DNA of 63,648 nucleotides, the filler included, from Folioceros fuciformis (lineage: Eukaryota), in assembly GCA_049999805.1 (NCBI GenBank). It is 8 parts of 8 records of this genome, joined end to end, with 100 filler letters (N's around TTAATTAATTAA, not from the genome) between each part and the next. Parts side by side here need not be neighbours in the genome. Positions count along the whole stretch, not along the records: positions 44,528 to 51,402 come from JBNGIO010006443.1; 7 more parts are not named here. The stretch is one strand, 5' to 3'. Position 1 is the first letter of the stretch. Each line of letters begins with the position of its first letter. Below, piece after piece: positions 28,989 to 63,648 of the stretch. The translations under genes were made by a program, and so were the position numbers. The notes beneath the pieces are model-generated. The model saw nothing but the letters and a program-made list of their open reading frames with translations. It made no database searches and was not told where the DNA came from.

Positions 28989-29781
28989 ATGGCCACAGTA
29001 TGGCAACCGGACCTGTTGTGGACCCAACAAATTGGAATTGGTGTGTGTACAAGGACTCTACTAGGAACCCCTCCTCACCTCATCTTCGGGAGTGAACCCT
29101 TTGCAAACAAAGCCTCCACGTGCAGCAATGTCAGGAACCCAGCACTTCCACCTCTAAGAATGAGAAAGTGTATGGGCAGGGATGGGTTTTTTGACAATGC
29201 TGGTAGTTGTCAGGAGCAGCAGGAGCACTTGTGGCAACAACTTTTTCTAAACCCTACCATGTGGTGGGATAACAAACAAGACAAGAAGAGCTCCCATTCC
29301 CCTACCTTCCGGCATAAGGGGTCCAGCGAGGTGTTGTGGTTGGACAACAGGTTTAAGCTAGCTTGGGTTGATGAGCAGGTCGTCTCCTTGGATATGCATA
29401 TGGGTTTGGGTTCCTCTGCTTCCAACTGGAGCTCTCTAGATCATCCTGAACCTGGAAGGCGTACGGGTGGTGAAATGAGCTCCAGGGGCAGCAGTGTAAG
29501 AAACCTAGCACTTCCACATCCAATGGGCCATGGAGTCTCTTCTTTCGAGTGCAGCTCTCTGTATAAGCGTGGATTTGGCAGGCGTGCAGAATTGGAAACG
29601 GGCGTCGTAACTGCTGCAACCATGAGCATGTTATGTCATCTTGGGAAGCTTTCTGAGGCCGTTGGAGCCTTGGAATCTCTGGTGCAGTCAGACTCTGGCG
29701 TTTCTTAGTCTCTGTTTTACACAATGTTAAAACTCTATACAGCTAAGAAGGATTTGGTGGTGGGGCGACTAGGTCATGATC
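28989..29781 (+). pseudogene. PPR DYW:KP array copy B, N-terminal part; nonsense mutation and LTR insertion
   Basis: Colinear with 54772-55564 (MATVWQPDLLWTQQIG...). TAG at 29706-29708 where copy D has CAG. Cut by an LTR at 29782. Confidence 0.92.
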
Positions 29782-30963: not shown

Positions 30964-32060
30964 NNNNNNNNNNNNNNNNNNNNNNNNNNNNNNNNNNNNN
31001 NNNNNNNTTAATTAATTAANNNNNNNNNNNNNNNNNNNNNNNNNNNNNNNNNNNNNNNNNNNNGCCAGCAATCGCACACCTCCACAAACCACGACGCCCT
31101 CTATCACACTGTCTACCTAGACTCTCACAACAAGTGCCATCGCCCATAGCTACTTGGCCGGTTGCCAGAGTACCTGAGCTCCAACGCATCACAAAACTCA
31201 CTCGAATCCACCCACAACCTCCATCGGCCCTGCGCGCATCGGTCCCAAGTGCCGGATAGCAACGTGCAGAGAGACTCGTTCTCATTCAGTGTGTTCCGTT
31301 TTGTAGGCAACCTACAACACGATCCAGAAGCTTCCGACCTCTCTTCCTCCGACCTTCCCAGCACTCTCGCCCGCTCCCCAGGCCCTGCCACGCATCTTGG
31401 CATCTTTTCATCACCTTCCTGGACCCATCCGCCGGTACGGCGCCTGTGCATCTGACAGCACATCGAAAACGCCCACGATAGAAAACAATTTTCTGACTTT
31501 CTCCACCCGTGCTCGACAAGTGAGAGGGGTGCGGAGAGGGAGAGCTACACCATCCCACCACCTTCCTCCATCACAACTTACCATCACCTCACCAGCTTCA
31601 GGCTATTAACGCCTGCACAACTCTGTTCCAACTCGAGATCGTCGGTCAATTCACAGTCAGGCACTCACCTTAGCACAGTGCGTGTGAATGACATGGCTAC
31701 CAAATGATGACGTCTGCGCCTGCACCACACGCCCTGAGACCCCAGCAACTTCATCCCTCGCCCATAATGTGGTGACCAGTAAGTGCTATTTCACATGGTG
31801 GCCTCCATCCACTGCACCACGACTTCGGAATTACCTTCTCCTCTCGCATACGACAAGTGTACACAAACAGGAATCTCACAATCATATACAATGCATTGCA
31901 GGTTCCATGAATCTACATACAAGATTGTGTAGAAAACAAATGGTTATGACAGCTATTGTTGGCACCACCTTCCTTGCACCACAAAGAATGCATAATATTA
32001 TACGTGAGTCAAGATCTGGGCCTTGGGAAAAGACCACGCCTCTTTCACCGTCCGCGTCCG

Positions 32061-33165
32061 CTTATCCTATTCAACGAGTGGAACCGAGCTGACTGACACC
32101 CTACGTTGGCCACTGAGTGCAAGACCTCCAGACACAGGACGACAGCCTGGAGGAGCCGTGAACGGAGGACGCCTTGAAACTCGTGACAACATGGTGGCCT
32201 GAACCACCGTGACAAATTATGTCAATGCCTACCTATGCATCTCACCTCAGCAGCCTTGCCAACCTTCCTGCCCTGCGTCAAGCGCAGTGCAGACAGAAAC
32301 ATGAAGAAGCAACATGGTTCATCAGACAGCCTTCTGTATGCAAGCCCAAGGGGGTTTCTCATTCACGACTCAATGCAACAACGAACTCATGTGGATGTGT
32401 TAAGGATTCTAGTAGACTCTGCAAGCATCATCGGCAAGCATCGTTACAGAGACAGGGCACCCTGCAGCTTCGAATTNNNNNNNNNNNNNNNNNNNNNNNN
32501 NNNNNNNNNNNNNNNNNNNNNNNNNNNNNNNNNNNNNNNNNNNNNNNNNNNNNNNNNNNNNNNNNNNNNNNNNNNNTGTGTGCATGCGAATGCACAGACA
32601 CGAAGAGGGAGTTCTGGGTCAGCTGTGGAAATCAGGGTGAGCCACAGACGGACATCAGGTGCTTCTACACGTGTCCGGAATCCATCCCACACCTCCAGTG
32701 TAATCTGTCCCACACTCTTTCCAAACCAACGGGAACCACAAAAGCTCTGCCTACGACTTGAACCTGAACCGCCTTGCCACATCGGAGACTGAAGGTTTCG
32801 CCTCCTGCAACAGGCTGTGCTTGCCCGACATGTTCTCTTGGAACACTCGCATCCTGCTGTGGAACAAAAGTATAGGTGCACATACTCACCTTGTTTTGCA
32901 TTGCATTAGCCCTGCAAGCAAATCTCTCCTCACCAGTGTCTGCGTTCGTGGCTCAGGAATGCAGTCACCACAGGCTGTCACTCAAAGCAAGAATGCATTT
33001 GTCGCTTGTGCGTTTAGAGAGCAGGAAATTACCCAGTCCATCAGAATCTCTCACTAGCGCCCACACACGGACCTCAAGATTTGTGCCCTGCCCTGCATCT
33101 CTTCGCTCTCGTCCTGCCACAAGAACAGTAGCTGCTGTACAGTGTACGAGGAAGCAGCACACCAT
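32061..33165 (+). repeat. ~1.1-kb duplicated segment, copy 1
   Basis: Colinear and moderately diverged relative to 37342-38371. Confidence 0.9.
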
Positions 33166-42119: not shown

Positions 42120-42307
42120 CTGCTTGCCCGAAAGATGACTTCCTTGCAAAGGAAGACTGCTTGCCCGAAAGATGACTTCCTTGCAAAGGAAGACTGCTTG
42201 CCAGAAAGATGACTTCCTTGCAAAGGAAGACTGCTTGCCAGAAAGATGACTTCCTTTGCAAAGGAAGACTGCTTGCCAGAAAGATGACTTCCTTGCAAAG
42301 GAAGACA
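42120..42307. repeat. Satellite, 5 x 37 bp, with an internal palindrome
   Basis: Unit CTGCTTGCC(C/A)GAAAGATGACTTCCTTGCAAAGGAAGA; periods 37, 37, 37, 38. Confidence 0.95.
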
Positions 42308-42406: not shown

Positions 42407-42744
42407 TTCAGCCAGATTCGTAGCGCATTCATCGTCATCGCTTCCTTTAGACTCATCAGGGGGAAGCGNNNNNNNNNNGTCTGGGTCAAGCGCATTCATC
42501 GTCATCGCTTCCTTTAGACTCATCAGGGGGAAGCGCGGTTGGTCTGGGTCAAGCGCGGTTGGTCTGGGTCAAGCGCGTTGAATGAGAATGCCCTTCTGGG
42601 TTCCTTCAAGTCGGCCATTCTACTCTACCTTGATTAGACACATATCTTGCCTGCCGCGAGGAGAAAAGTCAGATTGCTTGCATATGCGAATGAGGAACAG
42701 TCCGTTTGTCAGTCTCAGCTGTGACAGCATTATTGAAAAAGGTG

Positions 42745-43050: not shown

Positions 43051-44527
43051 GGGAGGTCAGAAGGCAGCAGCTTGTTGCGAGCAGATGTTACTTAGTGGTA
43101 CTGTATTCAGCCTTAACAATTGTCTTGGACTGTGACACAATAAGATGAAAGCCCTTCAGCCAACAATGAGTAGCATGTATTAAGACTTGTTCTTGTGCCC
43201 AGATCATGAGCCTCAGGCCTCCCAAACACAAGAACAGGGTACAGACTATGCCCTCCCTGCCTTGACCCACTGTGTCTACAGCTATTGCCCATTTGATCCG
43301 TTGCAGGTCCAGACCGGCACAGCATTTCCAATTAGTCTTGGAGGTGCCTCAATTCTCCATACTAGTGGGTAGTCTCAACTTCTCTGATCAAGAACCTCTG
43401 ATGATATTTTGTGTTGAAGTTGCAACAAGCTGAAGTTCCTCAAGCATGCCCTGCCATCATCAAGGACCCTCAAGCTGAAGTTCCTCTAGCATGCCCTGCC
43501 ATCATCAAGCACCAAGTTGAGTCAATACCAGGATGCTTTGTGTTCTCCAAGTCCTGTTCTTAGAGCTTAGGGTCTCAAGTTGCAAGATATGTATTCGTGA
43601 CTCATGGAGCGCAAGTGTGACTATAAGTGTGTCTAATTCATACAGCAATCATTGCCTTGAAAGGCTATCTTTAATTATTGCCTTGAGAAGCTATCTTTTC
43701 AGTAGAGGCCTAAATCACTAGCAGCCCATGATCAGGAGCAGCATTTCACAGTTCTTTTGTAACTAGAAAAGCACTCCTCTACAGTATGCCAACAAGAAAA
43801 GTAGAAGGATTGAGCATCTCGGGGAATGCTTTCCTTCAACCATTGCGGGACACATCCAAGGAAGCCCTCATTCCTCAGTGCTTGGCGAGCAAGCTGAATA
43901 ACTATCGATAAGGTGAAGAAGGGAGCCAGGGCTTTGCTATTTTGAGAATTGCTTGCTTCAAAGATAAAAGTGCTCACTCCTCGGAAACTGGCACCTGCGA
44001 CTATTCCTACGGCCATAAACATAGTCTCAGGTCCAGTGTTTCTGTTCATCGGAATGTTGTCCTTGCAAAATGGCCATCGCCCACTTCATTGAAGTCTCCT
44101 CCTGGCCGCAAGATCAACCGGAGCCATGGGAAGGTCTTGGTGACCTCATCACATGCATTGGTCAGGCTGGCAACCATCTTAGTGTCTTTGGGACCTCAAG
44201 TTACGGTACTTTGCTTCCGAAAGTGTTGGCTCGAATGGTTGGTGAATCATCTCATTTGCATTTGCTTTTATCATCGATTCTCTACGATCACGAAGTCAGG
44301 GAAATGCTGTTTGTTGCTGTCCTTGAAACTTGCGTTCAATCACAAAATGGAGCCTGCAATTCTGTTCGTTCAATGCAGAAAAACAACTCACACCCTCGAG
44401 CTTCCGTCCTGTAGCAGGCTGTAAGTTNNNNNNNNNNNNNNNNNNNNNNNNNNNNNNNNNNNNNNNNNNNNTTAATTAATTAANNNNNNNNNNNNNNNNN
44501 NNNNNNNNNNNNNNNNNNNNNNNNNNN

Positions 44528-44850
44528 AAGTCCACATGTCCTGTACTCGGGGTTTCACATAGTACGTTGATAATTGAATGCCCGTTAGAAATCCCCTTGG
44601 TAATTGTCCTGTGCGGGCCGCAATTGCAAGAGCAGCCTCCAATTGTTGACATGAAAGAACAGTGTTATCAAGAGCATCATCTAGAAGTCTTTGGTCATCC
44701 ATGCTCACATATCTTAAAGATAGCCCACAATCGGTGATGGCAACATCATTACTCCCCTCAAAGTAATTCAGTAAATAAAATAAGTCTCGAACTACACTTT
44801 AGTGTAGCAAGGGCTACGTCGTAGACGACCATTTGCCCCACATTGGCCAT
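44528..44850 (-). pseudogene. Harbinger transposase N-terminus, second copy (cut by gap)
   Basis: Near-identical to 49287-49609. Confidence 0.85.
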
Positions 44851-45624
44851 AGATTGTCAATCCCTGAGCTTCGACCTAAACCGTAGCTGCTTGCTTCGAC
44901 CTAAAACGTAGCTGCTTGTTGAGCATGAAACTTGCTAAGCTTTGTCAAAGTCCATAGGGACACTTGAGTTCGATCGCGAACAGGCCAAGGCCAGCCCGTT
45001 GTACTGAACCGGTGATGACCCGTTTCAGGCACTTGGCCACTCTCGGTCATGAGTTCCGGTATGGGATAGTTCACACGTAACTGGGAAAAAAATCCCTGGA
45101 AAAAACGCTTAGGGTGGTTCGGGCTACATGGGAACCTAGCATTACTTGGTACATTGGACCCGCCCGGGTCCTGACTCCTGATCCTGTGTGAGAATCCACG
45201 ATTTCGTTTTCATTGCCCCACATTGCTTCGCGACACTAATTTTAGCATTCACGTGCAATGTACCTTGCAGTTATTTAAAATTGAATTTAACCAAAATTTT
45301 ATTTATTGAGGTAGGCATTTCCTTGTCCTCTACTAACAGCCAAAAATCACATATAGTCCTCTTTCTAAACACAAAAAAAAAGTGCTTTCTTCACCAAAGG
45401 GCCAAAGGGCCAAAGGCTGGCCAAAGAGATGCATATGGAAAATACAAATGTGAGAAAGGAAGATATTATAACTCGTTGCCTCTACAAACACTGCTTCCCA
45501 AAGTAGTGAGAGACATTCTAAGAAATTTGGATAATGTGTTTTTTATACTTGACACATTTACACTTCTATAAAATGAGCAACTCTAAAGTGCATACCTTGT
45601 CGAAACACTTTGCTTAATTTGCTT

Positions 45625-47181
45625 TTATTTTGCAGTAATTATTTTGACCTTTTTGTATACCATGGTTAACACACAATTTGCTACACCAGTCTCTCCTATA
45701 GTTTTTGAGGATAGTGCATCCAAGGTATAATTGGTTGCAACACCGGGTCTACTTGGTGCAGTGAACCAAAACTCCTCATTGGAGTTGTGGAACAACCAAG
45801 TCTCTTGCAGTTGCTTCAAACAAAACAACCACAAATAAGAGGAAGGATCGGACAACAGAAAACGACGTTGAACTACTTGACCGTCCAATAATGGAAATGC
45901 AACTCGACAAGTTGCTCTTGATGGAGTGCACGATTCCTTTGGCTCCTCTGGAAGGTTGGTTGTTTCAAACCAAGGATAGCTAGCATTGTAATGTGTATCC
46001 TTGATGATAAGTCTAGACGGAAGATCCCATTGTACCACTTGGTCGCCCTCTTCAAATATGGTCCCCAATGGTAGTGCTTCCTCCACGATATCTCTTGTGT
46101 TGGGTCTTTTGTAAGTGAATGGCAACCATTGCTCTACCAATGCATCCGAGCTTATGTCACTTGCATCACATTGTTTCAATTTCTGCCCGGTAAGTGGGTC
46201 AATCACAAGTATGCAAAAAGTGCTCTCGCCTATGTTGTAAAAGGTCTTCACTTTTAAGATCTCTGTGCTGTTGATTGGGACTTTCCATTCAAGGAAAGAC
46301 TGTACAATGAGATCCTTCGAAATCTTGTTGTTGCAATTTTCCCACTTTCCAAAATGTGGGAATGCCATGATCTCGTCCCCATGGATGTAGGCTAGGAGCC
46401 ACTTGCTCATTGATAATGCCTTCAGCTTTGCATCATGCAAATTTCCCCAATAAGATTGCATGGACATAGATTTGAAACCATGGTTGACAGTGGTTGTTTC
46501 TTCATAGCTTTGGAACCATGGTTGTCCATTTGTAGCTTGCTCATCTGATGAAGGTTCTGATTCTTCATCAATTGTGAGTGGCCATGGTAGTTCACTTGCA
46601 CCAGTCCATGGTTGCCCATTTGTAGGTTGTTCATCTGATGAAGATTCTGATTCTTCATCAATTATGAGCGGCCATGGGAGTTCACTTGCACCAGCCCATG
46701 GTTGCCCATTTGTAGGTTGTTCATCTGATGAAGATTCTGAATCTTCATCAATTATGAGCGGCCATGGTAGTTCACTTGCACCTGCCCAGGGTTGTCCATC
46801 ACTCCATGCTAGTTCACTTGCACCTGCCCAAGGTTGTCCATCACTCCGTGGCTGTTCACTTGCACTAGTCCATGGTTGTTCCCTTGCACAGGCTGTGCAT
46901 GGCTGTTTACTTGCTTCAATCCATGGTTGATCATCTCTAATTTGTGCATAAAGTTCCATAGACCATGGTTGTCTACATGCTATTATAGCTTCTTCATGAC
47001 TTGCACTCCATTGTCGTTCGCTAACTTCAATCCTATGTGGTTTGCCACGAATGGTTTGTTCACAGATTGTGTTGCATGGTTGTTGATGACTAGCATCTGT
47101 GCAAGTCTTATCCCACATCGCTTCATTAGCTTGGTTAAGAATTTCGCTCACCAATTTGTCTTCCCCAAGGTTACGCTCCAT
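45625..47181 (-). CDS. Intronless PUX7/UBXN7-like protein (UAS + UBX) with an N-terminal acidic repeat region, 518 aa
   Basis: UAS: AKLKALSMSKWLL...KVKTFY...ILVIDPLTGQKL...LPF. UBX: LPEEPK...CRVAFPLLDGQVVQRRFLLSDP...LWLFC...GVANC. Repeats: 3 x 90 bp plus 42-bp units at 46516-46870. Confidence 0.88.
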   Translation of the reverse strand: MERNLGEDKLVSEILNQANEAMWDKTCTDASHQQPCNTICEQTIRGKPHRIEVSERQWSASHEEAIIACRQPWSMELYAQIRDDQPWIEASKQPCTACAREQPWTSASEQPRSDGQPWAGASELAWSDGQPWAGASELPWPLIIDEDSESSSDEQPTNGQPWAGASELPWPLIIDEESESSSDEQPTNGQPWTGASELPWPLTIDEESEPSSDEQATNGQPWFQSYEETTTVNHGFKSMSMQSYWGNLHDAKLKALSMSKWLLAYIHGDEIMAFPHFGKWENCNNKISKDLIVQSFLEWKVPINSTEILKVKTFYNIGESTFCILVIDPLTGQKLKQCDASDISSDALVEQWLPFTYKRPNTRDIVEEALPLGTIFEEGDQVVQWDLPSRLIIKDTHYNASYPWFETTNLPEEPKESCTPSRATCRVAFPLLDGQVVQRRFLLSDPSSYLWLFCLKQLQETWLFHNSNEEFWFTAPSRPGVATNYTLDALSSKTIGETGVANCVLTMVYKKVKIITAK

Positions 47182-47731
47182 TTTGGATCAAGGAAGCTCG
47201 ATTTCAGACACTTAGTAGGGAAGCTAAGCAATATCCTCTCAAAAGGTGTTGCCCTTTGCCTTTCTTGAAGCGTAACAACACAAGTAGCTAGGTTCACAAT
47301 CTATATGCACTATGTAATCTCAAGAAGACATCAAGATGATAAACTTAATTGTGAGCTTGCAAAATAACCTAGAACGTCTACTTGTATTGATAAAATAATA
47401 TCATGTACAACACACATATATAGTATATGTAGCTCATTTACATATGATGGTATGTCATTTTGACATGATATCGAGCTTTAATAAAGTATGCCTATAAAGT
47501 TTGTGGACAAAAAGGTATTACATATCTTCAGTTTCCCACGGGGATGGGATATGCAATGGATGGCAGTGGGACAAAGTATCCACACGGTTTGAAAGAACTT
47601 CATATGCAAAGCACATTCACAGTGTGTACATTACTGTGGAGCGATGCTGTACAAAAGGCATTTCGCTAAACTACGCGCTCTCTGTTCGGACAATATGTGA
47701 TTCCGAACGCGCTTGCTTCTATCGAGTTATC

Positions 47732-47880
47732 GGCCGCGTCGCAGCCGTAGTCGCCGGGGTATTCTCCCTTCAGATAGCTCGGGGGCTCGCCGGAGAACGG
47801 GCCCATGTATTTGGGCCTGTCTGGGCCGTACCTACAAGCAAGATCCGTGTTCCTTGATTTACATCGCGTTGCATGTCTCA
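47732..47880 (-). pseudogene. LHCB: Captured LHCB/LHCII fragment (intron 3' end + ~100-bp exon piece)
   Basis: Acceptor ...GCTTGTAG|G at 47832 is followed by [33 protein letters not shown], matching LHCII WYGPDRxKYLGPFS..PSYLTGEFPGDYGWDTA. Confidence 0.9.
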
Positions 47881-48224
47881 TGGCTGGCTAGCTCGAAGCA
47901 TTCAAGAACGAACAGGTCTGGACGATTGCATCCCATGGTCTAGGTGAGAGGGTAACAAACGCAGCTCATTGAGGAGGAGCAAAGCACTTGGACGCGAGTA
48001 ATGGAGCAAAGGAAACTTGAGGTGTATGAGTGAACCGAGGAGAAAAGATTGCAAGCTAACTCTGAATTTGGGCGTGGAGTGGTCTAGGCAATGATCGGCA
48101 TATCTCTTGGGACCCGAAGTCTTAGTTTAGCTATCATAGAGGCAGCCCATATCAAGAAAGGGCGGGTAGAACTTACACAACATTCATTTCTCAACAACAA
48201 AGGGTTGAACATATGGTTTCTAGT

Positions 48225-49609
48225 TCATGAGTTCATCTCATTGCTCCATAACATGTGCATCAAGATGTCTCTCAACCCACTGTGACCTTCGGCACTACCG
48301 GGCCCAGTTGCCATGAAGTTTTGATGCATGCCATCTTCTTCGTCGTCCTCCTCGCCTGCCAATATTCTTGGATCTATCTCATCACCACGATCTATCCGAA
48401 TGTTGTGCAGTAGCACACATGCATAAGTCAACGCATTGAAGTAGTCGATGTTGCCTCGCCACACCCTCCTACCTAGTATCCGCCAAACCTTTTTCAGTGC
48501 TCCGAAAGCGTCCTCAACGACCATACGAGAAGAGGATAGCTTGAAGTCAAAAGACTCTTTGTCTGCCATCAAACCTTGACCAGGAAAGGGGATGATCAAC
48601 CATGGAAGCAAAGGGTAGCCAACATCTCCGATGATATACTCTCGCACTTCCTCGTTATCCACGAGCATGGATGGTCCATTCAGCCGTGCACCTGCATTGG
48701 CTTGGTGATATACCTCTGAGTTGTATAGAATTCTCGTATCATTTGCAGCTCCTGGCCAGCCTGTTACTACGTCTAAGAACTTCTTATTGGGGCCTACGAT
48801 ACCTTGCATTGCGACTGTGAGATCCTTGTATCTTCCTCGATACTCCCATTGGTTTTCTCCTACAGGCAGTTCCAACCGAAAATGGGTCACATCGATGGCA
48901 CCACAACAATCCATGAAGCCATGTCGTTCAAAGAATCCTGCCTTCACTTCCTCCAATTTGACCTGTTGATGGCCAGGCAAGGTGATGCCTAGCCTTCTAT
49001 ATGATTGCTTTGACAAAACGGTGAGTAATTGTGCAGGCAATTGACTGTCCCACTCCGAAGCTGTCACCTAAAGAGACAAAGCTATCACCTGTGGCCAGTC
49101 TCCTTAAGGCAATGGCAACTTGTTTATGCACAGAGATAATCCCCCCGGGGATGTTCACAAATCCAGGAACTGGAGTCGGGTCAAGAGCGTCATGAACTAG
49201 ATTGCAGATGTACGTAGAGGTTGCCCATGGGAATCCATAGAAACGGGCAAACCTTTTTGGATCCTCTTGTGCCACTTGAAGGTATAAAGTCCACATGTCC
49301 TGTACTCGGGGTTTCACATAGTACGTTGATAATTGAATGCCCGTTAGAAATCCCCTTGGTAATTGTCCTGTGCGGGCCGCAATTGCAAGAGCAGCCTCCA
49401 ATTGTTGACATGAAAGAACAGTGTTATCAAGAGCATCATCTAGAAGTCTTTGGTCATCCATGCTCACATATCTTAAAGATAGCCCGCAATCGGTGATGGC
49501 AACATCATTACTCCCCTCAAAGTAATTCAGTAAATAAAATAAGTCTCGAACTACACTTTAGTGTAGCAAGGGCTACGTCGTAGACGACCATTTGCCCCAC
49601 ATTGGCCAT
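48225..49609 (-). pseudogene. PIF/Harbinger DDE transposase (HARBI1/ALP1 family), disrupted
   Basis: Motifs KQVAIALRRLATG, RHHLAWPS, CCGAIDVTH, GWPGAAND, IIGDVGYPLLPWL, RMVVEDAFGALK, ACVLLHN. In-frame TAG at 48997-48999, frameshift near 48955 and a probable one near 49555. Confidence 0.93.
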
Positions 49610-50374
49610 AGATTGTCAATCCCTGAGCTTCGACCTAAACCGTAGCTGCTTGCTTCGACCTAAAACGTAGCTGCTTGTTGAGCATGAAACTTGCTAAGCT
49701 TTGTCAAAGTCCATAGGGACACTTGAGTTCGATCGCGAACAGGCCAAGGCCAGCCCGTTGTACTGAACCGGTGATGACCCGTTTCAGGCACTTGGCCACT
49801 CTCGGTCATGAGTTCCGGTATGGGATAGTTCACACGTAACTGGGAAAAAAATCCCCGGAAAAAACGCTTAGGGTGGTTCGGGCTACATGGGAACCTAGCA
49901 TTACTTGGTACATTGGACCCGCCCGGGTCCTGACTCCTGATCCTGTGTGAGAATCCACGATTTCGTTTTCATTGCCCCACATTGCTTCGCGACACTAATT
50001 TTAGCATTCACGTGCAATGTACCTTGCAGTTATTTAAAATTGAATTTAACCAAAATTTTATTTATTGAGGTAGGCATTTCCTTGTCCTCTACTAACCACC
50101 AAAAATCACAGATAGTCCTCTTTCTAAACACAAAAAAAAGTGCTTTCTTCACTAAAGGGCCAAAGGCTGGCCAAAGAGATGCATATGGAAAATACAAATG
50201 TGAGAAAGGAAGATATTATAACTCGTTGCCTCTACAAACACTGCTTCCCAAAGTAGTGAGAGACATTCTAAGAAATTTGGATAATGTGTTTTTTATACTT
50301 GACACATTTACACTTCTATAAAATGAGCAACTCTAAAGTGCATACCTTGTCGAAACACTTTGCTTAATTTGCTT

Positions 50375-51402
50375 TTATTTTGCAGTAATTATTTTGACCT
50401 TTTTGTATACCATGGTTAACACACAATTTGCTACACCAGTCTCTCCTATAGTTTTTGAGGATAGTGCATCCAAGGTATAATTGGTTGCAACACCGGGTCT
50501 ACTTGGTGCAGTGAACCAAAACTCCTCATTGGAGTTGTGGAACAACCAAGTCTCTTGCAGTTGCTTCAAACAAAACAACCACAAATAAGAGGAAGGATCG
50601 GACAACAGAAAACGACGTTGAACTACTTGACCGTCCAATAATCGAAATGCAACTCGACAAGTTGCTCTTGATGGAGTGCACGATTCCTTTGGCTCCTCTG
50701 GAAGGTTGGTTGTTTCAAACCAAGGATAGCTAGCATTGTAATGTGTATCCTTGATGATAAGTCTAGACGGAAGATCCCATTGTACCACTTGGTCGCCCTC
50801 TTCAAATATGGTCCCCAATGGCAGTGCTTCCTCCATGATATCTCTTGTGTTGGGTCTTTTGTAAGTGAATGGCAACCATTGCTCTACCAATGCATCCGAG
50901 CTTATGTCACTTGCATCACATTGTTTCAATTTCTGCCCGGTAAGTGGGTCAATCACAAGTATGCAAAAAGTGCTCTCGCCTATGTTGTAAAAGGTCTTCA
51001 CTTTTAAGATCTCTGTGCTGTTGATTGGGACTTTCCATTCAAGGAAAGACTGTACAATGAGATCCTTCGAAATCTTGTTGTTGCAATTTTCCCACTTTCC
51101 AAAATGTGGGAATGCCATGATCTCGTCCCCATGGATGTAGGCTAGGAGCCACTTGCTCATTGATAATGCCTTCAGCTTTGCATCATGCAAATTTCCCCAA
51201 TAAGATTGCATGGACATAGATTTGAAACCATGGTTGACAGTGGTTGTTTCTTCATAGCTTTGGAACCATGGTTGTCCATTTGTAGCTTGCTCATCTGATG
51301 AAGGTTCTGATTCTTCATCAATTGTGAGTGGCCATGGTAGTTCACTTGCACCAGTCCATGGTTGCCCATTTGTAGGTTGTTCATCTGATGAAGATTCTGA
51401 TT
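50375..51402 (-). CDS. PUX7-like UAS-UBX gene, second copy (5' end lost in gap)
   Basis: Near-identical to 45625-46652; reads CRVAFRLLDG, keeping the UBX Arg. Confidence 0.86.
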
Positions 51403-51502
51403 NNNNNNNNNNNNNNNNNNNNNNNNNNNNNNNNNNNNNNNNNNNNTTAATTAATTAANNNNNNNNNNNNNNNNNNNNNNNNNNNNNNNNNNNNNNNNNN
51501 NN

Positions 51503-52000
51503 AGAAATCTAGCATGAGGGCCAACAGCTCTTGCCCATAATGCTTGTCCATGAGGGTGGTCTGAAGCCCCCTCATACCCCCATAAAGGAAGGAAGAAAAC
51601 GAAGGCATGACCAATCGGGCTTGTGAAGATAAGAGACCATGGGCCCTCATGAGGGGCTCCTGGAGGGGGAATGGCCCTTCCTCAACTGCCATGAGAAACC
51701 CCTCCAAAATGCCCAAGTTTCTAATGGAGAAGCAAGTCACCAAAGCTTGGGCAGAGAGCGCCCAACTACTAAGAAAAGTAGTTGGCGCCAAGGCCTCTAT
51801 GGCCGATAGTCCAATGCCGCCCAAAGCAATGGGTAGAGATGCCTATCTCTTAGCCAAATCACCTGAAGCATAGTCGAATGAACCCAGGCCAACAATGTCC
51901 CCTAATTCTTTCAATACCTACTTGTCCAAGTCCCTCAATTTGGAAAGAAAGTCTAGGGATGGAGGCACTGTGCGGACGAGGTACCCAGGGCATTGCGCAA
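51503..52000 (-). mobile_element. CRE/R2-like non-LTR retrotransposon relic, RT C-terminal region
   Basis: LAKR*ASLPIALGGIGLSAIEALAPTTFLSSWA resembles the GGLG...AxLxSW thumb region of RLE-type elements. Confidence 0.6.
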
Positions 52001-52006
52001 AGTAGG

Positions 52007-53311
52007 TGGACAGACATTTGTGAACCCTTGTCTACACCCTCTTTTAGACGTAGTAGATATTTTTTGACCTTCATAGATGATTTCTCTCATTTTGTCTTTT
52101 CCTGCATCTTGAAAAACAAGAGTGATGCCTTTCACTTCTTCAAGGACTACATAAAATGGGCTGAGACACTTACAGATAGCAAACTCAAAACCTTATGTTC
52201 CGACAATGGTGGAGAGTTTACATCTACTGAATTTGAGGAGTTTTGTTGAGCTGAGGGGATAGCTCAACAACTTACAGTTGTCTACACTCCTCAACAAAAT
52301 GGCGTTGCCGAGAACAAGAATCTACGCCTTCAAGAGATCACAGGTTGCTTATTGGTACAAGCTAAGTTATCTAAGGCTTATTGGGCAGAGGCCCTCCTCA
52401 CAGCAACCTATCTCATGAATCGATTGCCTACATCAGCAGTTCAAGGTATGACTCCATATGAAGCATTCATTGGCAAGAAGCCTTCTATTGACCACCTCTG
52501 AATTTTTGGATCCCCGGCATATGTTTTTATTCCCAAAGCATTGCGTAAGAAGTTGGATCCCAAAGCAGCTAAGTACACTTTCATTGGCTACACCGAAGAT
52601 ATCAAAGGGTACAAATTATTCAACCCTTCTACAAGGCAACTTTTATATGCCCAGAGTGTCACTTTTAATGAGTCTTACCTCTTTTCCCCAAAAGTGGGAG
52701 CTGATCATATTGGTCCTTCTCTCGATGAGACCATTGACCCTTCTTATTTTGATGATACTGATTATCTCACTCCATTTCCTATTCCTGCTTCCCGTGCTCC
52801 TTTAGTTGAACCTATTATGCAAGAGGAGGAGGAGTTAGCATCCATTCCACAACCTGGTACAACTCAACCAGACGCACCTAATGTTGACATCCCAACAGAG
52901 GTGCCAGTTGATACTCATGATGATAAATTTGAATGACCCTCTGGAGGATGCATCACATTGTGGAGCCAGCAGATCCTTTCGTAGATCCCACTCCTGTGGA
53001 TGATGCACCTGCACAAAGGTACAACCTCAGATCCCGGCCTACCATTTCAAGTCCTGCAGGTTGGAAGGACCTGAAATCCTTTAGGATACCTAGCTGTTTT
53101 TTATGATCCTATTCCTCCCGTATCACTTTATTCTCAAGCTGTATACAAGACAACTATAGACCCAGAAGAACCTCTTACCTTAAAACAAGCTTTCTCTTCT
53201 CCTGAAAAAGACTTATGGAAGGTAGATGTAGACTTTGAATATAATTCCCTAGTTAATAACTCTACATGGGAATTGGTCAAGCCACCTAGGGGAAGGAAGA
53301 TAGTACCACAC
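52007..53311 (+). mobile_element. Copia integrase to RT-start fragment, no LTRs
   Basis: Motifs TDICEP, YFLTFIDDFS, SDNGGEF, YTPQQNGVAE, RKKLDPKA, EEPLTLKQA, TWELVKPP; stops present. Confidence 0.9.
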
Positions 53312-53577: not shown

Positions 53578-53831
53578 AAGTGAACAAAATAGAATGCCGA
53601 AGAGAGACCAATAGTAAACACCCCGTCAGCTCTAGCCTGCTTGCATAATTCTGGCTTCCAGCCCCGAATATCGAAACACTGTGGAACCAAAGCTCTTCAA
53701 AAATCTCCATGCCAATCATAAATTTCGAATCNNNNNNNNNNNNNNNNNNNNNNNNNNNNNNNNNNNNNNNNNNNNTTAATTAATTAANNNNNNNNNNNNN
53801 NNNNNNNNNNNNNNNNNNNNNNNNNNNNNNN

Positions 53832-53864: not shown

Positions 53865-54771
53865 GAAAAATGAAGAAGTGAGTGTAGCCAGTGCCAGGTG
53901 GATTCCTAGTGGTGTGCGGATTGGTCGTGGTGGCAAGTACGGATGTTCCCCTAACAAGAAGACGAAGAAGAAGAAGAATTGTATGATGGTGCACTTGAGG
54001 GCATTTCGCTCTGTGGGACTAGGTACTTCACACCTTTGTAGCAAGCCTAGCATGTTTTCCCTGCACCCCTGCACACTGTTCATGATGAGCACGTTGTACA
54101 CGTGCTTTGCAGGGTCTCGTCAACTCGTTCTCCTCACCAATACTGCCATATGTATATTATGCTGTACAGTGCAGGTGAAAGCAGATTGGTAGCCAGTATG
54201 CCGAGGAGTATGAAGGCAAAAGGATCTTGGCAGTTCACAGGAAGCAAGTGAAAGTAGCAATCCCAATCACAATCCAGGCAGTGCGAGGCACATATCTAGA
54301 CTTTTACTTAACGGCAATTCCTCGTCTAGTCACATCCTGGGCCGCGTTGCCGTTTCGGCCTTCAAGATGCCAACTGACCTAACTGCGTGATGAGAAACAG
54401 AGACCGTTATACCATGGCTCGCTTAAAAGATCTTGGGGTATGTAGGTTGGCATGCACTTAACGTTGACAAGCCTTAAATGAAATTCTTGTTTCTCTTATG
54501 GCGGCTGACAAGCAATTAACTGTTTTGTATATCTCAAGTGAAACATAAAGTTACTACGTAATATCCGTCACATGGTCGAGTGGTCTGAAGCACCAAACCG
54601 ACAGCTCGCCCACAGGTATTATAGAACGGCTCACCCCTTCAGGCAGGACGGCTTACGGTTCACCCCTTCAAGCAGCTGTGGTCTTACATACGTATGTACA
54701 GGGTATTCGGCCGGAGATCCGCCTAGACGAGAGTTTTGTTAGAGTCATCTTCCGACACCGGTCCGTGAACG

Positions 54772-57700
54772 ATGGCCACAGTATGGCAACCGGACCTGTT
54801 GTGGACCCAACAAATTGGAATTGGTGTGTGTACAAGGACTCTACCAGGAAGCCCCGCTCACCTCAGTTTCGGGAGTGAACCCTTTGCAAACAAAGCCTCC
54901 AGGTGCAGCAGTGTGAGGAGCCCAGCACTTCCACCTCCGAGAACGAGAATGTGTGTGGGCAGGGACGGGTTTTCCGACGATGCTGGTAGTTGCCAGGAGC
55001 AGCAGGAGCACTTGTGGCAACAACTTTTTCTGGACCCTACCATGTGGTTGGATAACAGACGAGACAAGAAGAGCTCCCGTTCCCCTGACTTCCGGCGTAA
55101 GGGGTCCGGCGAGGTGCTGTGGTTGGACAACATGTTTAAGCCAGCATGGGTTGATGACAGGCTCATCTCGTTGGATATGCAGATGGATCACGGTTCCGCC
55201 CCTTCCATCTCCAGCTCTCCAGATAATCCTGATCCTGGAAGGCGTACAGGTGGTGAAATGGGCTCCAGACGCAGCAGTGCTAGAAATCCAGCACTTCCAC
55301 ATCCAATGCGCCATAGAGTCTCTTCTTTCGAGTGCAGCTCTCCGTATAAGAGTGGATCTGGCAGGCGTGCAGAATTGGAAACGGGCGTCGTAACGGCTGC
55401 AACTGTGAGCATGTTATGTCATCAGGGGAAGCTTTCTGAGGCGGTTGGAGCCCTGGAATCTCTGGTGCAGTCAGACTCTGGCGTTTCTCAGTCTCTGTTT
55501 TACACAGTGTTAAAACTCTGTACAGCTAAGAAGGATTTGGTGGTGGGGCGACGAGTTCATGATCTCACAGTCAAACTTGGGTACGAGTCGAATGCATATT
55601 TGGGGAACCATATCTTGCGCATGTATGCATGTGGAGGTAGGCTAAAGGAGGCGATGGATGTGTTCAACAGGGTAGGGAAACCGAATGTCTTCATGTGGTT
55701 TTCCATAATTTCTGGACATGCTAAGCACGGGAAGCCGAAGGAGGCCATACAACTGTACCATGAAATGCGTAGGTCAGAAGTGAAGGCGAATGGTTATGTG
55801 TTTGTAGCCGCCCTTCAAGCTTGTGCATATGCTGCCGACATAGAATCTGGCAGAACAATGCACCGCGACGTGTTGTGCAGTGGCTTCCGTACTGACTTGT
55901 TTGTTAACAGCTGCTTGGTGGATATGTATGCAAAATGTGGCCGAATGAAAGATGCACGCCAGGTTTTTGATAGCATGAACACGAAGGATGTGGTGACATG
56001 GACGGTCCTGATCGCTGGGTATGCACAGCAGGGACTGGGCCAAGAGGCACTTGTTGTTTATGGACAAATGGAGGAGGCAGGCGTGGTTGTGGCTGACTAT
56101 GTTACTTTTGCTTGCCTTCTGAAGGCGTGTGGAAGCACTGGAGCCTTGCAGAAGGGCAGGGAGCTCCACTCGCAGATTGTCAACAGAGGTCTGCTGGATG
56201 ATGTACTCGTAGGCACCTGCCTGGTGGACATGTATGCAAAATGTGGTGAGGTGGAATGTGCACGACAGGTTTTTGACAACATGAACACAAAGAATGTGGT
56301 TACATGGACGGCCCTGATTGCTGGGTATGCACAGCAAGGACTCGCCCAAGAGGCCCTTGGTCTGTACGGGCAGGTGGAGGAGGCAGGCCTCGTTTTGGCC
56401 GATGATGTTACTTTTGCATGCATTCTGAAGGCGTGTGCAAGCAGTGGTGCATTGCAGAAGGGCAGGGAGGTGCACTCACAGATTGTCAACAGAGGTCTGC
56501 TGGATGATGTACTGGTAGGCACCTCCCTGGTGGACATGTATGCAAAATGTGGTGAGCTGGAAGATGCACGCCAGGTTTTTGACAGCATGAACAGTAAGAA
56601 TGTGGTTACATGGACCGCCCTGATTGCTGGGTATGCACAGCAAGGACTCGGCCAAGAGGCGCTTGTTGTGTATGGACAGATGGAGGAAACAGGACTCGTT
56701 TTGGCTGATGATGTTACTTTTGCTTGCATTCTGAAGGCGTGTGGAAGCACTGGTGCCTTGCAGAAGGGCAGGGAGCTGCACTCACAGATTGTCGAGAAAG
56801 AACTGCTGGATAATGTAGTGGTGGGCACCTGCCTGGTGGACATGTATGCCAAATGTGGTGAGGTGGAAGATGCACGCCAGGTTTTTGACAGCATGGCCAC
56901 TAAAGATGTCGTCACATGGAATGCCCTGATTTCAGGGTATGGTGCTTGTGATGAAGGTTGCAAGGCGCTAGCTTGTTTTGAGGAGATGTTAGCTGCCGGT
57001 GTTCATCCTAACCATGGTACTTTTACTTGCCTTCTAGTAGCATGCAGTCATGGGGGTCTGGTCGAGGAGGGTCGCAAGCTCTTTGATTCCATGGCTGAAG
57101 AGCATGGTGTCATACCTACTGCTGAGCATCACAACTGCATGATTGATCTTCTTGGGCGTGCTGGCGAACTAGATGAGGCAGAGAGGATGCTATTATCATG
57201 TGAGGGCGAAAGTGATGTGGTGTGTTTGACATCTTTGTTGAATGCCTGCAAAAGTCACGGAGATCTAGAGAGGGCTGTGTGGTGTTTTGAAAGCATTGTT
57301 AGGCTGGACCCCCAGGAGGCACCTGCCTATGTTCTCATGGCCAATGCCTATGCAGATGCAGGTAGGTGGACCGATGTAGACAGGATTGAAACACAGAGAA
57401 AGGCAGCAGGAGCTAAGAAGAAGCCAGCAGTGGCAAGCATTGAGGTAAATAAGGAGGTACACAGATTTCAGGTGGGAGAAAGGAGAAAGGATATTGCGCT
57501 TAAGGTAGAGAGCACGAATGCGCGTGTGAAGCAGGAAGGAGGCCACGTACCTCACACAAAGTTGGTGTTGAAGCCAGTGAGTGAGAAGGAAAAGGAAGAC
57601 GTGCTTTGTGGGCATGCTGAGAAGCTAGCTCTGGCGTTTGGTCTGTTGAACACTCCGAATGGGACACCTCTGATGGTAACCAAGAATCTACGCATGTGCA

Positions 57701-57822
57701 GTGATTGCCACAGCTCGACGGCGATCATGTCGAGGCTTGAGCAGAGAGACATTGTTGTGAGGGATGGGTACCGTGTGCATCGATTCGCAAATGGTTGTTG
57801 CAGTTGTAAGGGTCGACCATGA
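54772..57822 (+). CDS. Full-length intronless PLS-PPR-E-DYW:KP (GRP-type) organellar RNA editing factor, copy D, 1016 aa
   Basis: About 200-aa Ser/Pro/Arg-rich leader, ~17 PPR motifs with 306-bp triplet repeats, E1/E2, KKKPAVASIEV, HAEKLA, CSDC, terminal GRP. Confidence 0.96.
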   Translation: MATVWQPDLLWTQQIGIGVCTRTLPGSPAHLSFGSEPFANKASRCSSVRSPALPPPRTRMCVGRDGFSDDAGSCQEQQEHLWQQLFLDPTMWLDNRRDKKSSRSPDFRRKGSGEVLWLDNMFKPAWVDDRLISLDMQMDHGSAPSISSSPDNPDPGRRTGGEMGSRRSSARNPALPHPMRHRVSSFECSSPYKSGSGRRAELETGVVTAATVSMLCHQGKLSEAVGALESLVQSDSGVSQSLFYTVLKLCTAKKDLVVGRRVHDLTVKLGYESNAYLGNHILRMYACGGRLKEAMDVFNRVGKPNVFMWFSIISGHAKHGKPKEAIQLYHEMRRSEVKANGYVFVAALQACAYAADIESGRTMHRDVLCSGFRTDLFVNSCLVDMYAKCGRMKDARQVFDSMNTKDVVTWTVLIAGYAQQGLGQEALVVYGQMEEAGVVVADYVTFACLLKACGSTGALQKGRELHSQIVNRGLLDDVLVGTCLVDMYAKCGEVECARQVFDNMNTKNVVTWTALIAGYAQQGLAQEALGLYGQVEEAGLVLADDVTFACILKACASSGALQKGREVHSQIVNRGLLDDVLVGTSLVDMYAKCGELEDARQVFDSMNSKNVVTWTALIAGYAQQGLGQEALVVYGQMEETGLVLADDVTFACILKACGSTGALQKGRELHSQIVEKELLDNVVVGTCLVDMYAKCGEVEDARQVFDSMATKDVVTWNALISGYGACDEGCKALACFEEMLAAGVHPNHGTFTCLLVACSHGGLVEEGRKLFDSMAEEHGVIPTAEHHNCMIDLLGRAGELDEAERMLLSCEGESDVVCLTSLLNACKSHGDLERAVWCFESIVRLDPQEAPAYVLMANAYADAGRWTDVDRIETQRKAAGAKKKPAVASIEVNKEVHRFQVGERRKDIALKVESTNARVKQEGGHVPHTKLVLKPVSEKEKEDVLCGHAEKLALAFGLLNTPNGTPLMVTKNLRMCSDCHSSTAIMSRLEQRDIVVRDGYRVHRFANGCCSCKGRP

Positions 57823-57936
57823 GAAAAATGAAGAAGNNNNNNNNNNNNNNNNNNNNNNNNNNNNNNNNNNNNNNNNNNNNTTAATTAATTAANNNNNNNN
57901 NNNNNNNNNNNNNNNNNNNNNNNNNNNNNNNNNNNN

Positions 57937-61056: not shown

Positions 61057-61155
61057 NNNNNNNNNNNNNNNNNNNNNNNNNNNNNNNNNNNNNNNNNNNN
61101 TTAATTAATTAANNNNNNNNNNNNNNNNNNNNNNNNNNNNNNNNNNNNNNNNNNN

Positions 61156-63648
61156 NGTACTGCTGGAAGTGCTACCTCCAGCACTACCGGATGTGTACCC
61201 GGGAGATGGTCCTGCTGTTTCTCCCCCATAGGGAGCTTTGCTCCACGAGACAAACGAAACTTCAGCAGGTCCTGTAGGTTTAGACCTAAAGGTCACACCT
61301 TTCCTGCCAAAATCAAACACACAAGCTGTCCCGTACAACCACGGTCTCCCAAGGAGCACCTTGTACCCTAGGTCAGACACTGGCCTCATGACAATGTAGG
61401 TTAGCTTGAACATGATCCCTCCTATCACCGTGGGCACATCCTTCAACACTCCTAGAGGCTTCCTCTTGGTCTGATCTGCCATCCGAAGGTACACGCGGAT
61501 AGGGTCAAACTCCGTGAACCCCAAACGATGGGCTGTGTCCTCCGTCATGAGGTTGACACCAGACCCCGTATCCAACGGTACATCCGGTACCAGACAACCT
61601 GCAATCTCCACCTCTATTTCAGGAGCTCCACAATCAGCCAACTCCACTGAACTCATCCACGTCGGGACTGTCTTCCCTTCGAGTGGCTCCGGTATCCCTC
61701 GGATGGCTTCCTTGACGATCTTCCTGGCCTTGGGACTAACAGACAAGAGCTGTCTCAAGCTCACCACAAACTCCTGGTCAAGCAAGGCGTCAGCAAATCC
61801 AGCAACCTTCATGGCCAAAGCCTCCCTTGCTGTTGTTGTCTTAGGAGGATTGATCCCTCCATCCTCCTCGCTTCGATCAACCTTCTCTCCTTCGTGTTCC
61901 TTCTCCAAGGGACTTGCACTCTCCACCACCCCTGTCACAAGAGGGTCTGCAAACGTGACCTTCTTAGACCGGTGCATCAGCCTAGTAAGCTCTTCCTCCA
62001 GCATTGCAGCAACCTCCTTGCTGATGTCGGGTGGGAATGCTGATTCTTCAACCTCTCCTTCATCTAGTTCACCTTCCTCTCGATGGGGTGGATCAACCTC
62101 TTGTCCCGTCGACACATCATTCTTCCCTTGCTGGACGAGTGGTTCCTCCCTTGCCTCCGATGGTTTAGGAGTGTTGTCACGTTCTCTCCTCCTTCTCTTC
62201 TCTTCCTTCTTCGTCTTCTCCCGATAACGACGTTCAGAACGAGTGGTGACCCTTGCCACCATGACGTCTTCACCATCGCTAGCTTCGCCTGAATATCCCT
62301 CCTCCACAATGCCAGAAAATGCGTGAGAGTCAATCAAAGGCTCCTCCTCAGCCTCCACCGACAACACAGGTGCGCTTGTCACTGGAGTTGTTGTCTCCAC
62401 CGCAGAAGGAAGTCCCTCTTGCGGTGCCTCCGTGATCCTCACTCCAGATCTAGGCAGCGCAGGCCTAGGGATGCCCGAACACCTTGGATCCCCAGCCCTG
62501 TGCCCTGGATCCTTACACACCTGACAAAACGGCACAAATCCAAGTTGCCTACGTGGCTCTGTGCACTCGTTAGCATAGTGTCCCGGCAAGCCACAATTAA
62601 AACAACACCCTGCTGCCACCACTTGTGGACGTTGGGACGGATCTGGCCTCCAATGGCCTGGAGATACTGGACGAGGACCATACCTCATTCCAGGAGGTCC
62701 TGGTGGTTGGAAAGATGGCCGAATGGACTGTGGTGGTCGAGGAGCAGTCACAGCCTGTACCTGATAGGAGTCATCCACGTACCAATAGTCTCCTGGTAGG
62801 TAGGTGTCCACTTGGTTGACGGCGTGGCGGGGAGCCCTAGTGCACTCTTGGTGGGTGTGTCCTGATTGGTGACAAATAGAACAGTACACCAGCTGCCGAC
62901 CCGGTGAAGGTGACCTCCTTGGTGCTTGGTTGCGTACAGCCTTCACCTCCAGCTCGGCCAGCCTCCTCGTCAATGCCTCAACCTGACTGGTCAGTCCTCC
63001 ACCACTTGAGGATGGTTCGCCTCTCTCCATCCTATAGGATCCTTTACCTCTCTTGTCCTTCTCAGCTCGACGATCCTCATCCTCTTCGCGCCTCTTGCGT
63101 GCTTTCTCCAGGTCCTTCCTCATCCTCTTCTCATAAGCCTTATCGGACTCCTCATCGGTGTAAGAATCCGTCACAAGGCTGTCATAATCGGGATCAGAGT
63201 GAGACGGTGACCTCGACCTTGAAGAGGAAGATGGGCTGTGATGTCTTGACCTCCTATGATGCCCATACTTCCGGTTCTGCTTCCTCTTCTCTCTGCTCAA
63301 CTCCGAAAGCTCAAAATCTTCAGCAGCCTTCAAAGCCTCCTGCAAAGTGGTCACACCTCTTGTGCAGTAGGTTGCCATCCTATCAGGTAGTCCTCCAGCA
63401 AACCAATCCAAAGCTTGAGCATCCGTGTACCCTGGAGTACTCGGACCTCCCGGAACAACTGGCCTACCACGTGGAATCCTGTCCACATAGCTGTAGAACC
63501 TCTCAATGTAGTCATAGAGATCCTCCTTCCTTCCTCGCTTCAAAGTCCTCAACCTCGCGTAGGTGTGATGGCCATGGCTGAGACCTCGGAACCTGGTCAA
63601 GAAATCGTCCTTCAGGCTGTCCCAATCCACTGGTGGTGTCACTCCATA
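61156..63648 (-). mobile_element. Ty3/Gypsy gag-protease ORF
   Basis: Retrotrans-gag WDSLKDDFLTRF; three CCHC knuckles; aspartic protease LDTGSGVNLM...VLLGRPWL; open for more than 820 codons. Confidence 0.9.

Follow-up and report, generated by a model that had tools for sequence, protein, structure and literature searches.

A head-to-tail 4.76-kb unit with a PIF/Harbinger transposase gene and a divergent PUX7-like reading frame in Folioceros fuciformis: a candidate macrosatellite-like array

Macrosatellites that bear an open reading frame (ORF) are exemplified by human RS447, with the ubiquitin-system gene USP17, and D4Z4, with DUX4, in which units of 3-5 kb are repeated by the tens head to tail. 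Here we describe a contig of Folioceros fuciformis (JBNGIO010006443.1 of assembly GCA_049999805.1), positions 44528 to 51402 of the window, i.e., of the whole stretch of 63,648 nucleotides that was analysed. It consists of a repeated 4.76-kb unit which includes a PIF/Harbinger transposase gene, a piece of an LHCB (chlorophyll a/b-binding protein) gene and an ORF for a protein with a UBX domain. The unit shares with RS447 and D4Z4 its kilobase scale, its head-to-tail arrangement and the presence of an intronless ORF which, as in the case of USP17, belongs to the ubiquitin system. It differs from them in its plant host, in carrying a DNA-transposase gene and a dead gene fragment, and in that array length is here estimated rather than seen. 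We consider it moderately probable that the contig is part of a macrosatellite-like array in the nuclear DNA of this land plant, in which a chimeric unit is repeated head to tail and a transposase gene and a PUX7 paralogue devoid of a UBA domain are co-amplified.

In autonomous elements of the PIF/Pong type, a first ORF (ORF1) precedes the transposase gene. The unit resembles PIF and Pong in its full-length transposase of the DDE_Tnp_4 family, which has the three catalytic blocks and is collinear with plant relatives, in having a second ORF upstream on the same strand, and in a size within the range of autonomous elements. It departs from them in that this second ORF encodes a UAS-UBX protein instead of a Myb/SANT protein, no terminal inverted repeats (TIRs) were found in it, its copies stand head to tail and not dispersed, and the transposase of the window carries a stop codon and a frameshift. 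The closest annotated relatives of the transposase are the domesticated Harbinger genes ALP1 and HARBI1, whose Myb-derived partners are of the ALP2/NAIF1 type; the names of these relatives are automatic, and the gene studied here is unlike them in being a broken copy, in being multi-copy and in having no Myb-derived partner nearby. With respect to the second ORF, Arabidopsis PUX7, human UBXD7 (UBXN7) and yeast Ubx5 are cofactors of CDC48/p97 with the order UBA-UAS-(UIM)-UBX. The ORF has in common with them the UAS domain followed by a C-terminal UBX domain and the proline-containing S3-S4 loop, and it is distinguished by the absence of a UBA domain, a novel N-terminus of 224 residues with repeats, scores below all Pfam thresholds, a low identity and long branch (see below), the lack of introns and its location in a multi-copy repeat. 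A host-type protein-modification gene and gene fragments multiplied beside a class II transposase are also on record, namely ULP in KAONASHI Mutator-like elements (MULEs) and CACTA elements and the transduplication in Pifvine-3, according to the passages of PMC2528002 that treat them; those elements possess defined TIRs, target-site duplications (TSDs) and dispersed copies, whereas the unit studied here is multiplied in tandem.

In self-BLAST, 44528-46652 aligned with 49287-51402 over 2125 bp at 99.15% identity. Between the two copies there were nine substitutions and two indels, one of 1 bp inside an A-run and the other of 8 bp; the period of the unit measured 4759 bp on the left side and 4750 bp on the right. 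The contig, exactly 6875 bp in length, thus contained 1.45 units placed head to tail without interruption, and the repeat reached both of its ends. The transposase gene, the LHCB piece and the 518-codon ORF were all located on the minus strand. Spacers flanked the contig on both sides, as the window was made of eight contigs strung together via seven identical N44-TTAATTAATTAA-N44 spacers (Table 1), and therefore adjacency across these spacers carries no meaning. The initial annotation had reported a unit of ~4759 bp repeated inside one contig, with three co-linear parts on one strand, and both observations were confirmed. In the rest of the window, searches that included tblastn revealed no further copy of the unit, of the transposase or of the UBX ORF. 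No match was obtained when the contig was scanned for Rfam families and tRNAs, and the intergenic spacer 44703..45624 had no Pfam, Rfam or tRNA match.

The number of units was approached through three DNA runs with the same organism label, which came from two studies; the best two (X1 and X2) derive from one sample and are not independent. Run contigs were compared with one unit at 90% likeness in 30 bins, and those of X1 and X2 covered 30 of the 30. The median word depth of the part present twice in the contig, relative to the part present once, was 379 vs. 393 in X1 and 286 vs. 312 in X2 (0.92-0.96). This equality speaks against an A-B-A structure, for which a ratio of 2:1 would be expected, and fits a long array or a circle. 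The contigs of the true LHCB genes had, in the bin 47748-47908, a summed depth of 11.4 in X1 and 10.5 in X2, and rare variants of the unit had depths of 7.6-30. With ~11 as the upper bound of single-copy depth, these data suggest some 25-35 copies of the unit, a figure built on summed contig word depths, which are not copy numbers. By the same proxy (unit depth ~25-35 times that of the LHCB-gene contigs), the amplification claimed in the initial annotation was upheld.

The deepest read variant differed from both copies in the window, and copy 2, unlike copy 1, had the states of that variant at 45097, 45893 and 46086. The reads are thus dominated by a third haplotype, so that the unit exists in no fewer than three variants, and an array of diverged units is favoured over a single circle that was read two times. 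Only 57% of the sampled 31-mers of the contig occurred in the best DNA runs, and the divergence of the deepest contigs from the window varied among parts (0.3-3.4%), being greatest in the core of the transposase gene (48667-49021, 12 differences in 354); the assembled copy would therefore be a minority variant of the unit. In X1, 53 of 74 differences (72%) were transitions. The dips in depth at 47748-47908 (X1 and X2) and 47426-47747 (X2) were considered as real gaps and rejected, since the eight loose letters after 47734 are those of the window with three changes; at these dips the deep variant probably continues in a form too divergent to align. The strings at the loose ends of read contigs, inspected by eye, corresponded to unit variants at 44903 and 48276, to LHCB-like sequence at 47773 and to unrelated sequence at 44530 and 48000. 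The loose ends at 44530 and 48000 could be edges of the array, deletion derivatives or other copies of the transposon; no sequence pairing with the 48000 breakpoint was found. In addition, a low-depth variant (10.8) linked 49199 to 45116 through 37 other letters.

The transposase gene matched the Pfam families DDE_Tnp_4 (E 3.6e-25) and Plant_tran (2.9e-11). A three-frame reading revealed all the catalytic blocks (GAIDVTHF, IIGDVGYP and VVEDAFGALK), with the DDE triad intact. The window copy had two lesions, of which one was a TAG in frame (48997-48999) and the other a single switch of frame at ~48957-48965; the initial annotation had described this gene as a Harbinger DDE transposase that retains its triad and has a stop and frameshifts. 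Six plant relatives were compared by tblastn; five of them gave two collinear high-scoring segment pairs, in frames -3 and -1, over residues ~51-350, and the alignment of P0107 was limited to the C-terminal part. The truncated next copy was 100% identical by tblastn to residues 1-60 of this gene (ORF A), in a reading that begins two codons before the first ATG. The search for homologues returned 47 proteins, of which the best was an unnamed protein with 51% identity; those with names ('ALP1-like', ANTAGONIST OF LIKE HETEROCHROMATIN PROTEIN 1, HARBI1 and 'DDE Tnp4') were 35-41% identical. The deepest variant of X1 and X2 lacked the extra base at 48957 and hence the frameshift, and in the PNC-GAID block it had Asn, as the relatives do, where the window copy has Asp. 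The 14 differences between the transposase of the window and that variant were 7 silent and 7 replacement changes. Consequently, the contrast drawn previously between an intact cargo and a decayed transposase holds for the copy in the window; it does not extend to the family, given that the lesions are two and one of them, the frameshift, is missing from the deepest variant.

The identity of the 518-codon ORF was established from its C-terminal half. Pfam assigned no family to it, even at E<=10, and the Pfam UBX model itself was unmatched. Nevertheless, phmmer against PDB with the C-terminal 294 residues identified the UAS domain of human UBXD7 (2dlx, E 6.4e-6), and a HMMER search against all proteins gave 106 matches at E<=1e-3, the best at 8.8e-18 and 37% identity. 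In the alignment of 55 rows (the ORF piece and 54 matches), Thioredoxin_7 was present in 51/55, UBX in 51/55 and UBA_4 in 37/55, with none of them in the row of the ORF. The nearest named relatives were 'plant UBX domain-containing protein 7-like'; ten relatives were looked up, and six of the ten had a name that included an organism, two of those being 7-like and one coming from a lycophyte. The family profile matched the UBX domains of p47 and FAF1, and in the protein atlas Thioredoxin_7+UBX clusters came out on top (0.93). AlphaFold produced a model with a mean predicted local distance difference test score (pLDDT) of 79 when the family alignment was supplied, vs. 32.8 from the single sequence; pLDDT was 88-96 in most blocks of the UAS domain and 76-96 per 10-residue block in the UBX domain (residues 181-290 of the piece). 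Foldseek ranked the UAS domain of UBXD7 first (E 1.3e-5) and UBX domains next, which comprised 2cr5, 9v9o (the UBX of PUX5 with CDC48A-N), 3qq8 and 5x3p, including the UBX domains of FAF1 and UBXD7. No UBA domain was found either by Pfam at E<=10 or by hhalign, in which only residues 229-518 could be aligned to the family profile. Judging from these comparisons and from the predicted fold, the ORF is in its C-terminal half a UAS-UBX protein of the plant PUX7 family, as had been proposed in the initial annotation from its open frame of 518 residues.

The ORF was 31-36% identical to named plant PUX7 proteins over the two folded domains, whereas the PUX7 proteins compared, that of the lycophyte included, were 43-66% identical to each other; it is therefore not a recent capture of the PUX7 of the host, and the gene capture suggested earlier did not stand in the sense of a recent uptake. 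In a quick maximum-likelihood IQ-TREE tree, in which its placement is unsure, its end branch was 3.44 vs. a median of 0.64 (~5 times). No closer relative, above 37% identity over the matched stretches, was present among 1.84 billion representatives; word-based protein searches at near and shorter lengths yielded no relative, and of the 31 pattern matches in a scan of metagenome contigs none was confirmed. On the basis of these identities the ORF is best described as an old or fast-evolving PUX7 paralogue. As to a retrogene origin, no poly(A) trace was seen downstream of the ORF on its coding strand; the A-run at 45366-45375 belongs to the opposite strand.

The N-terminal half has no counterpart in Pfam (residues 1-224), and its best score in the protein atlas (0.85, recognition 789) was uninformative. 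It contains a 30-residue repeat present three times (46516-46799 on the minus strand, residues ~128-222), with a motif of the type W-P-L-I-I-D-E-E-S-E-S-S-S-D-E (form WPLIIDEESESSSDE), i.e., a Trp-Pro-Leu-Ile-Ile hydrophobic core and then an acidic Ser-rich run; we take these motifs to resemble SUMO- or ATG8-interaction motifs. In the S3-S4 loop of the UBX domain, both Pro479 and Gly480 were retained, each of them common to 47/54 relatives, and this loop is the element of UBX domains in contact with CDC48 in the part of PMC13078151 that deals with it. Other positions had changed: Pro432, found in 52/54 relatives, is Leu, and Arg436 (51/54) is Val. At residue 430, where 47/54 relatives have Arg, copy 1 has Pro, and both copy 2 and the deepest variant have Arg.

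The frame was open in copy 1, in copy 2 and over the 1310 of 1557 bp that the deepest variant spanned. Copy 2 differed from copy 1 by two replacements (P430R and V366M) and one silent change. The deepest variant showed nine substitutions (three silent and six replacement), one in-frame 3-bp deletion and no stop, and the four indels found against it in non-coding parts were all of 1 or 2 bp. With the one further silent change that separates the two window copies, the pooled changes of the ORF were 4 silent and 6 replacement, on 322 silent and 1232 replacement sites. The resulting between-copy ratio of replacement to silent rates (dN/dS), ~0.4-0.5 on 10 substitutions, was indistinguishable from 1 (binomial P about 0.13, hand calculation).

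The presence of an LHCB fragment within the unit, also part of the initial annotation, was corroborated by phmmer against PDB: the translation of 47666-47887 (minus strand) matched LHCB1/LHCB2 chains at E 5e-15 to 7e-15, with chlorophyll a-b binding protein 1 at 5.2e-15. The extent of the fragment was obtained from a further run, X5, whose RNA label is a guess and whose contigs match only the LHCB-like part of the unit. Nucleotide homology to very deep light-harvesting complex (LHC) contigs of X5 spanned 47624-48000; contigs with depths of 357-10000 were restricted to 47624-47832, and a 401-nt contig with a depth of 3.7 matched 47803-48000 and diverged beyond. Over the alignable part the piece was 96-98% identical to the expressed LHC sequence. 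LHC contigs and unit contigs separate at 47624 and at 48000, and loose ends were present at 48000 in X1, X2 and X5. Since the LHC contigs of X5 are bounded at 47624 and diverge at 48000, the LHC homology has breakpoints at both ends. A TSD at 48000 was considered and rejected, as the junction reads GAG-TAA-TGG and the LHC contig departs one base into the TAA, without a clean TAA/TTA duplication.

Table 1. Features of the contig and spacers of the window (strand ".", none assigned)
Feature	Position	Strand	Remarks
Contig of repeat sequence only	44528..51402	.	full unit 44528-49286 and partial second unit 49287-51402; self-BLAST
PIF/Harbinger DDE transposase gene, about 411 codons	48225..49461	-	first ATG 49461, stop 48225
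Next transposase copy, first 58 codons, ended by contig edge	44528..44702	-	tblastn
Open intronless ORF of 518 codons, predicted UBA-less divergent PUX7-family protein	45625..47181	-	HMMER, named relatives, hhalign
UBX ORF, copy 2, 341 codons of the C-terminal part, open to contig end	50375..51402	-	
UAS (thioredoxin-like) domain, ORF residues 243-361	46099..46455	-	
UBX (beta-grasp) domain, ORF residues 409-510	45652..45957	-	
In-frame tandem repeats in N-terminal half of the ORF	46516..46879	-	90-bp period x3.2, 42-bp period x2.8; Tandem Repeats Finder
Decayed LHCB (chlorophyll a/b-binding protein) 5' fragment	47624..48000	-	transit-peptide end and N-terminal motif region; 376 bp
Intergenic spacer, UBX stop to next transposase start	44703..45624	.	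includes 8-bp indel between copies
25-bp x2 repeat within intergenic spacer	44868-44918	.	Tandem Repeats Finder
N44-TTAATTAATTAA-N44 spacers	18498-18597, 30964-31063, 44428-44527, 51403-51502, 53732-53831, 57837-57936, 61057-61156		

According to the explanation that we favour, the unit would have been assembled once from a PIF/Harbinger transposase gene, the 5' end (~376 bp) of an LHCB gene and an old, fast-evolving and intronless PUX7 paralogue, after which tandem duplication and unequal exchange, instead of cut-and-paste transposition, would have multiplied the whole block into an array probably some tens of units long. The transposase and the UBX ORF would then be linked because they were co-amplified and not because one mobilises the other. 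Several points weigh against this explanation. The copies directly visible number just 1.45, the copy estimate derives from word depths, and X1 and X2, which come from one sample, may be the very source of the assembly. The loose end at 44530 in X1 and X2 sits two bases from the start of the contig, with unrelated sequence joined to the unit; it might represent the flank of the array, a derivative with a deletion or a copy at a dispersed site, and no array edge was identified. The near-intact transposase, with its 7 silent and 7 replacement changes, suggests past selection on this gene. Regarding the function assumed for the UBX ORF, the changes at near-invariant residues of the domain (P432L, R436V and, in copy 1, R430P) mean that binding to CDC48 is not assured. 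Finally, gene order and size resemble those of a true two-gene Harbinger, with the UBX ORF preceding the next transposase, on the same strand, by 916 bp and a unit of about 4.4 kb once the LHCB piece is left out. This gene order, which places the ORF in the position of ORF1, is the sole positive support for an unlikely alternative, a two-gene Harbinger family in which the Myb/SANT-like ORF1 was replaced by a PUX7-derived CDC48 adaptor that aids the element, the array being a secondary accident at one locus. Compatible with it are the intact DDE triad, the absence of the frameshift from the commonest variant, the frame kept in three haplotypes, and the long end branch of the ORF, which would fit long residence in a fast-evolving mobile element. 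No Myb/SANT/trihelix-like family was detected in the 6 + 10 translations scanned, where the only other long ORF was that of the UAS-UBX protein, so that the lack of a Myb-like ORF noted in the initial annotation was verified. There are precedents too, since the passages of PMC2528002 on this subject record gene capture by PIF elements (Pifvine-3) and ULP SUMO-protease domains borne by transposable elements, and those of PMC8903248 a search for Pack-type elements with Harbinger-PIF TIRs in rice and maize. Nevertheless, none of the 35 short inverted pairs detected in the unit by a repeat search flanked the genes, and the best pair obtained by blastn-short between and within the two non-coding stretches was of 15 nt (93%, E 0.18), a search from which short or decayed TIRs could escape. 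No second locus existed in the window, no relative above 37% identity was found by the searches described above, and a full-text literature search returned no paper combining Harbinger, 'UBX domain' and transposase. The equal depth of transposase and UBX ORF is what any single block would give and is not specific to transposition. Given that the two genes are seen linked only through head-to-tail repetition, a pattern that does not arise from cut-and-paste transposition, a Harbinger cargo is unproven, and the initial view of an element that carries or spreads the UBX gene was not sustained, with neither TIRs nor a second copy in the window. Its most elaborate form is distinctly improbable; in it, a Harbinger lineage would have exchanged its Myb-like ORF1 for a CDC48 adaptor, with the UBA domain giving way to three WPLIIDEESESSSDE motifs, would recruit the segregase and would have been amplified about 30-fold.

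Tandem amplification could also concern a cluster of host genes, that is, a domesticated nuclease gene derived from Harbinger (ALP1/HARBI1-like) together with a PUX7 paralogue, and selection for dosage may have acted on it. The ALP1-like and HARBI1 names of the nearest transposase relatives, the lack of TIRs and of a Myb ORF, and the 7:7 ratio of silent to replacement changes between variants agree with this proposal; we regard it as doubtful, because such names are assigned automatically, and to ordinary Harbinger transposases as well, the transposase of the window has a stop and a frameshift, and the unit includes a dead LHCB fragment. Moreover, an excess of transitions is expected in methylated repeats, and the 72% observed in X1 corresponds to it. 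Rolling-circle copying, for its part, naturally yields head-to-tail arrays, and a non-autonomous Helitron-like unit with three gene pieces captured on one strand might have been deposited as a concatemer. Helitrons have a 5' TC and a 3' hairpin with CTRR, and hairpin-CTRR|TC would be expected at a head-to-tail junction; at 45156-45171 (plus strand) there is a GC-rich 16-nt palindrome followed 6 nt on by CTGA and then TC (to 45183), the sole such site in the unit on either strand. It must be considered that this site was noticed post hoc and that 16 of 300 shuffles yield one by chance. No read loose end or joint fell at 45181/45182 among the 18 of 28 loose ends listed, the unit encodes no Rep/helicase, and Helitrons usually capture intron-bearing fragments and not a whole intronless ORF of 518 codons, all of which makes this origin very improbable. 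An extrachromosomal circle of 4.76 kb, or a cycle of the assembly graph walked 1.45 times, would account for the fact that the repeat reaches both ends of the contig, which starts two bases from a branch point (44530) and ends inside the 90-bp internal repeats, and the even depth around the unit suits a circle as well as a long array. The two passes, however, differ by nine substitutions and two indels, and only the second has the states of the deepest variant at the three sites mentioned, which indicates that distinct units are truly adjacent; terminal direct repeats alone predict the 2:1 depth that was not observed, and no replication function is encoded. Thus, we judge a circle or a graph cycle to be quite unlikely.

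If the macrosatellite-like array is accepted, it would be a plant counterpart of the ORF-bearing macrosatellites, in which a transposase gene, a scrap of a gene and a whole gene were welded together and multiplied as one block. Co-linearity within a repeat is not the same as cargo, and this calls for caution in the annotation of transposable elements. The UBX ORF probably is, or until recently was, a real protein-coding gene, although any expression of it is something we infer. Its evolution has been about five times faster than that of its relatives; the UAS-UBX module is preserved, the UBA domain has disappeared and a new repeat region has been added. The UAS-UBX module has most likely retained its docking on the CDC48 N domain. 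The UBA domain appears to have been replaced by the acidic, Trp/Pro-rich and thrice-repeated N-terminal region, as a result of which the protein would deliver another client to CDC48 or act in competition with the canonical adaptors. The product might be an adaptor of CDC48 that has been re-targeted, or a natural competitor. Were the transposon-partner alternative true, this element would be the first known case of a DNA transposon with a gene for an adaptor of the CDC48/p97 unfoldase. A CDC48-recruiting Harbinger might strip silencing or chromatin proteins from its own DNA, or might dismantle the transposase complex after cleavage, in analogy to ClpX, which acts on the transposase complex of phage Mu.

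Elsewhere in the window, the other runs of N, of 100 (32477-32576) and 10 (42469-42478), resemble ordinary scaffold gaps. The contig that precedes the one described here has a short tandem repeat with a period of ~37 bp at 42120-42306 (self-BLAST offsets 37, 74 and 111; 96-98%). In a short contig, ORFs at 51878-52936 (plus strand) resemble by eye the integrase part of a Ty1/copia retrotransposon. At 54772-57822 (plus strand) there is an open frame of 1016 residues which, by eye, resembles a PLS-class pentatricopeptide repeat (PPR) protein with a DYW-type C-terminal end. Its 306-bp internal repeats recur in another contig (22153-23129) at 85-93% identity, and, at 91-93%, the flank 53956-54561 corresponds to 24153-24756 and the flank 54721-55020 to 28938-29237, which suggests two paralogous or homeologous PPR loci.

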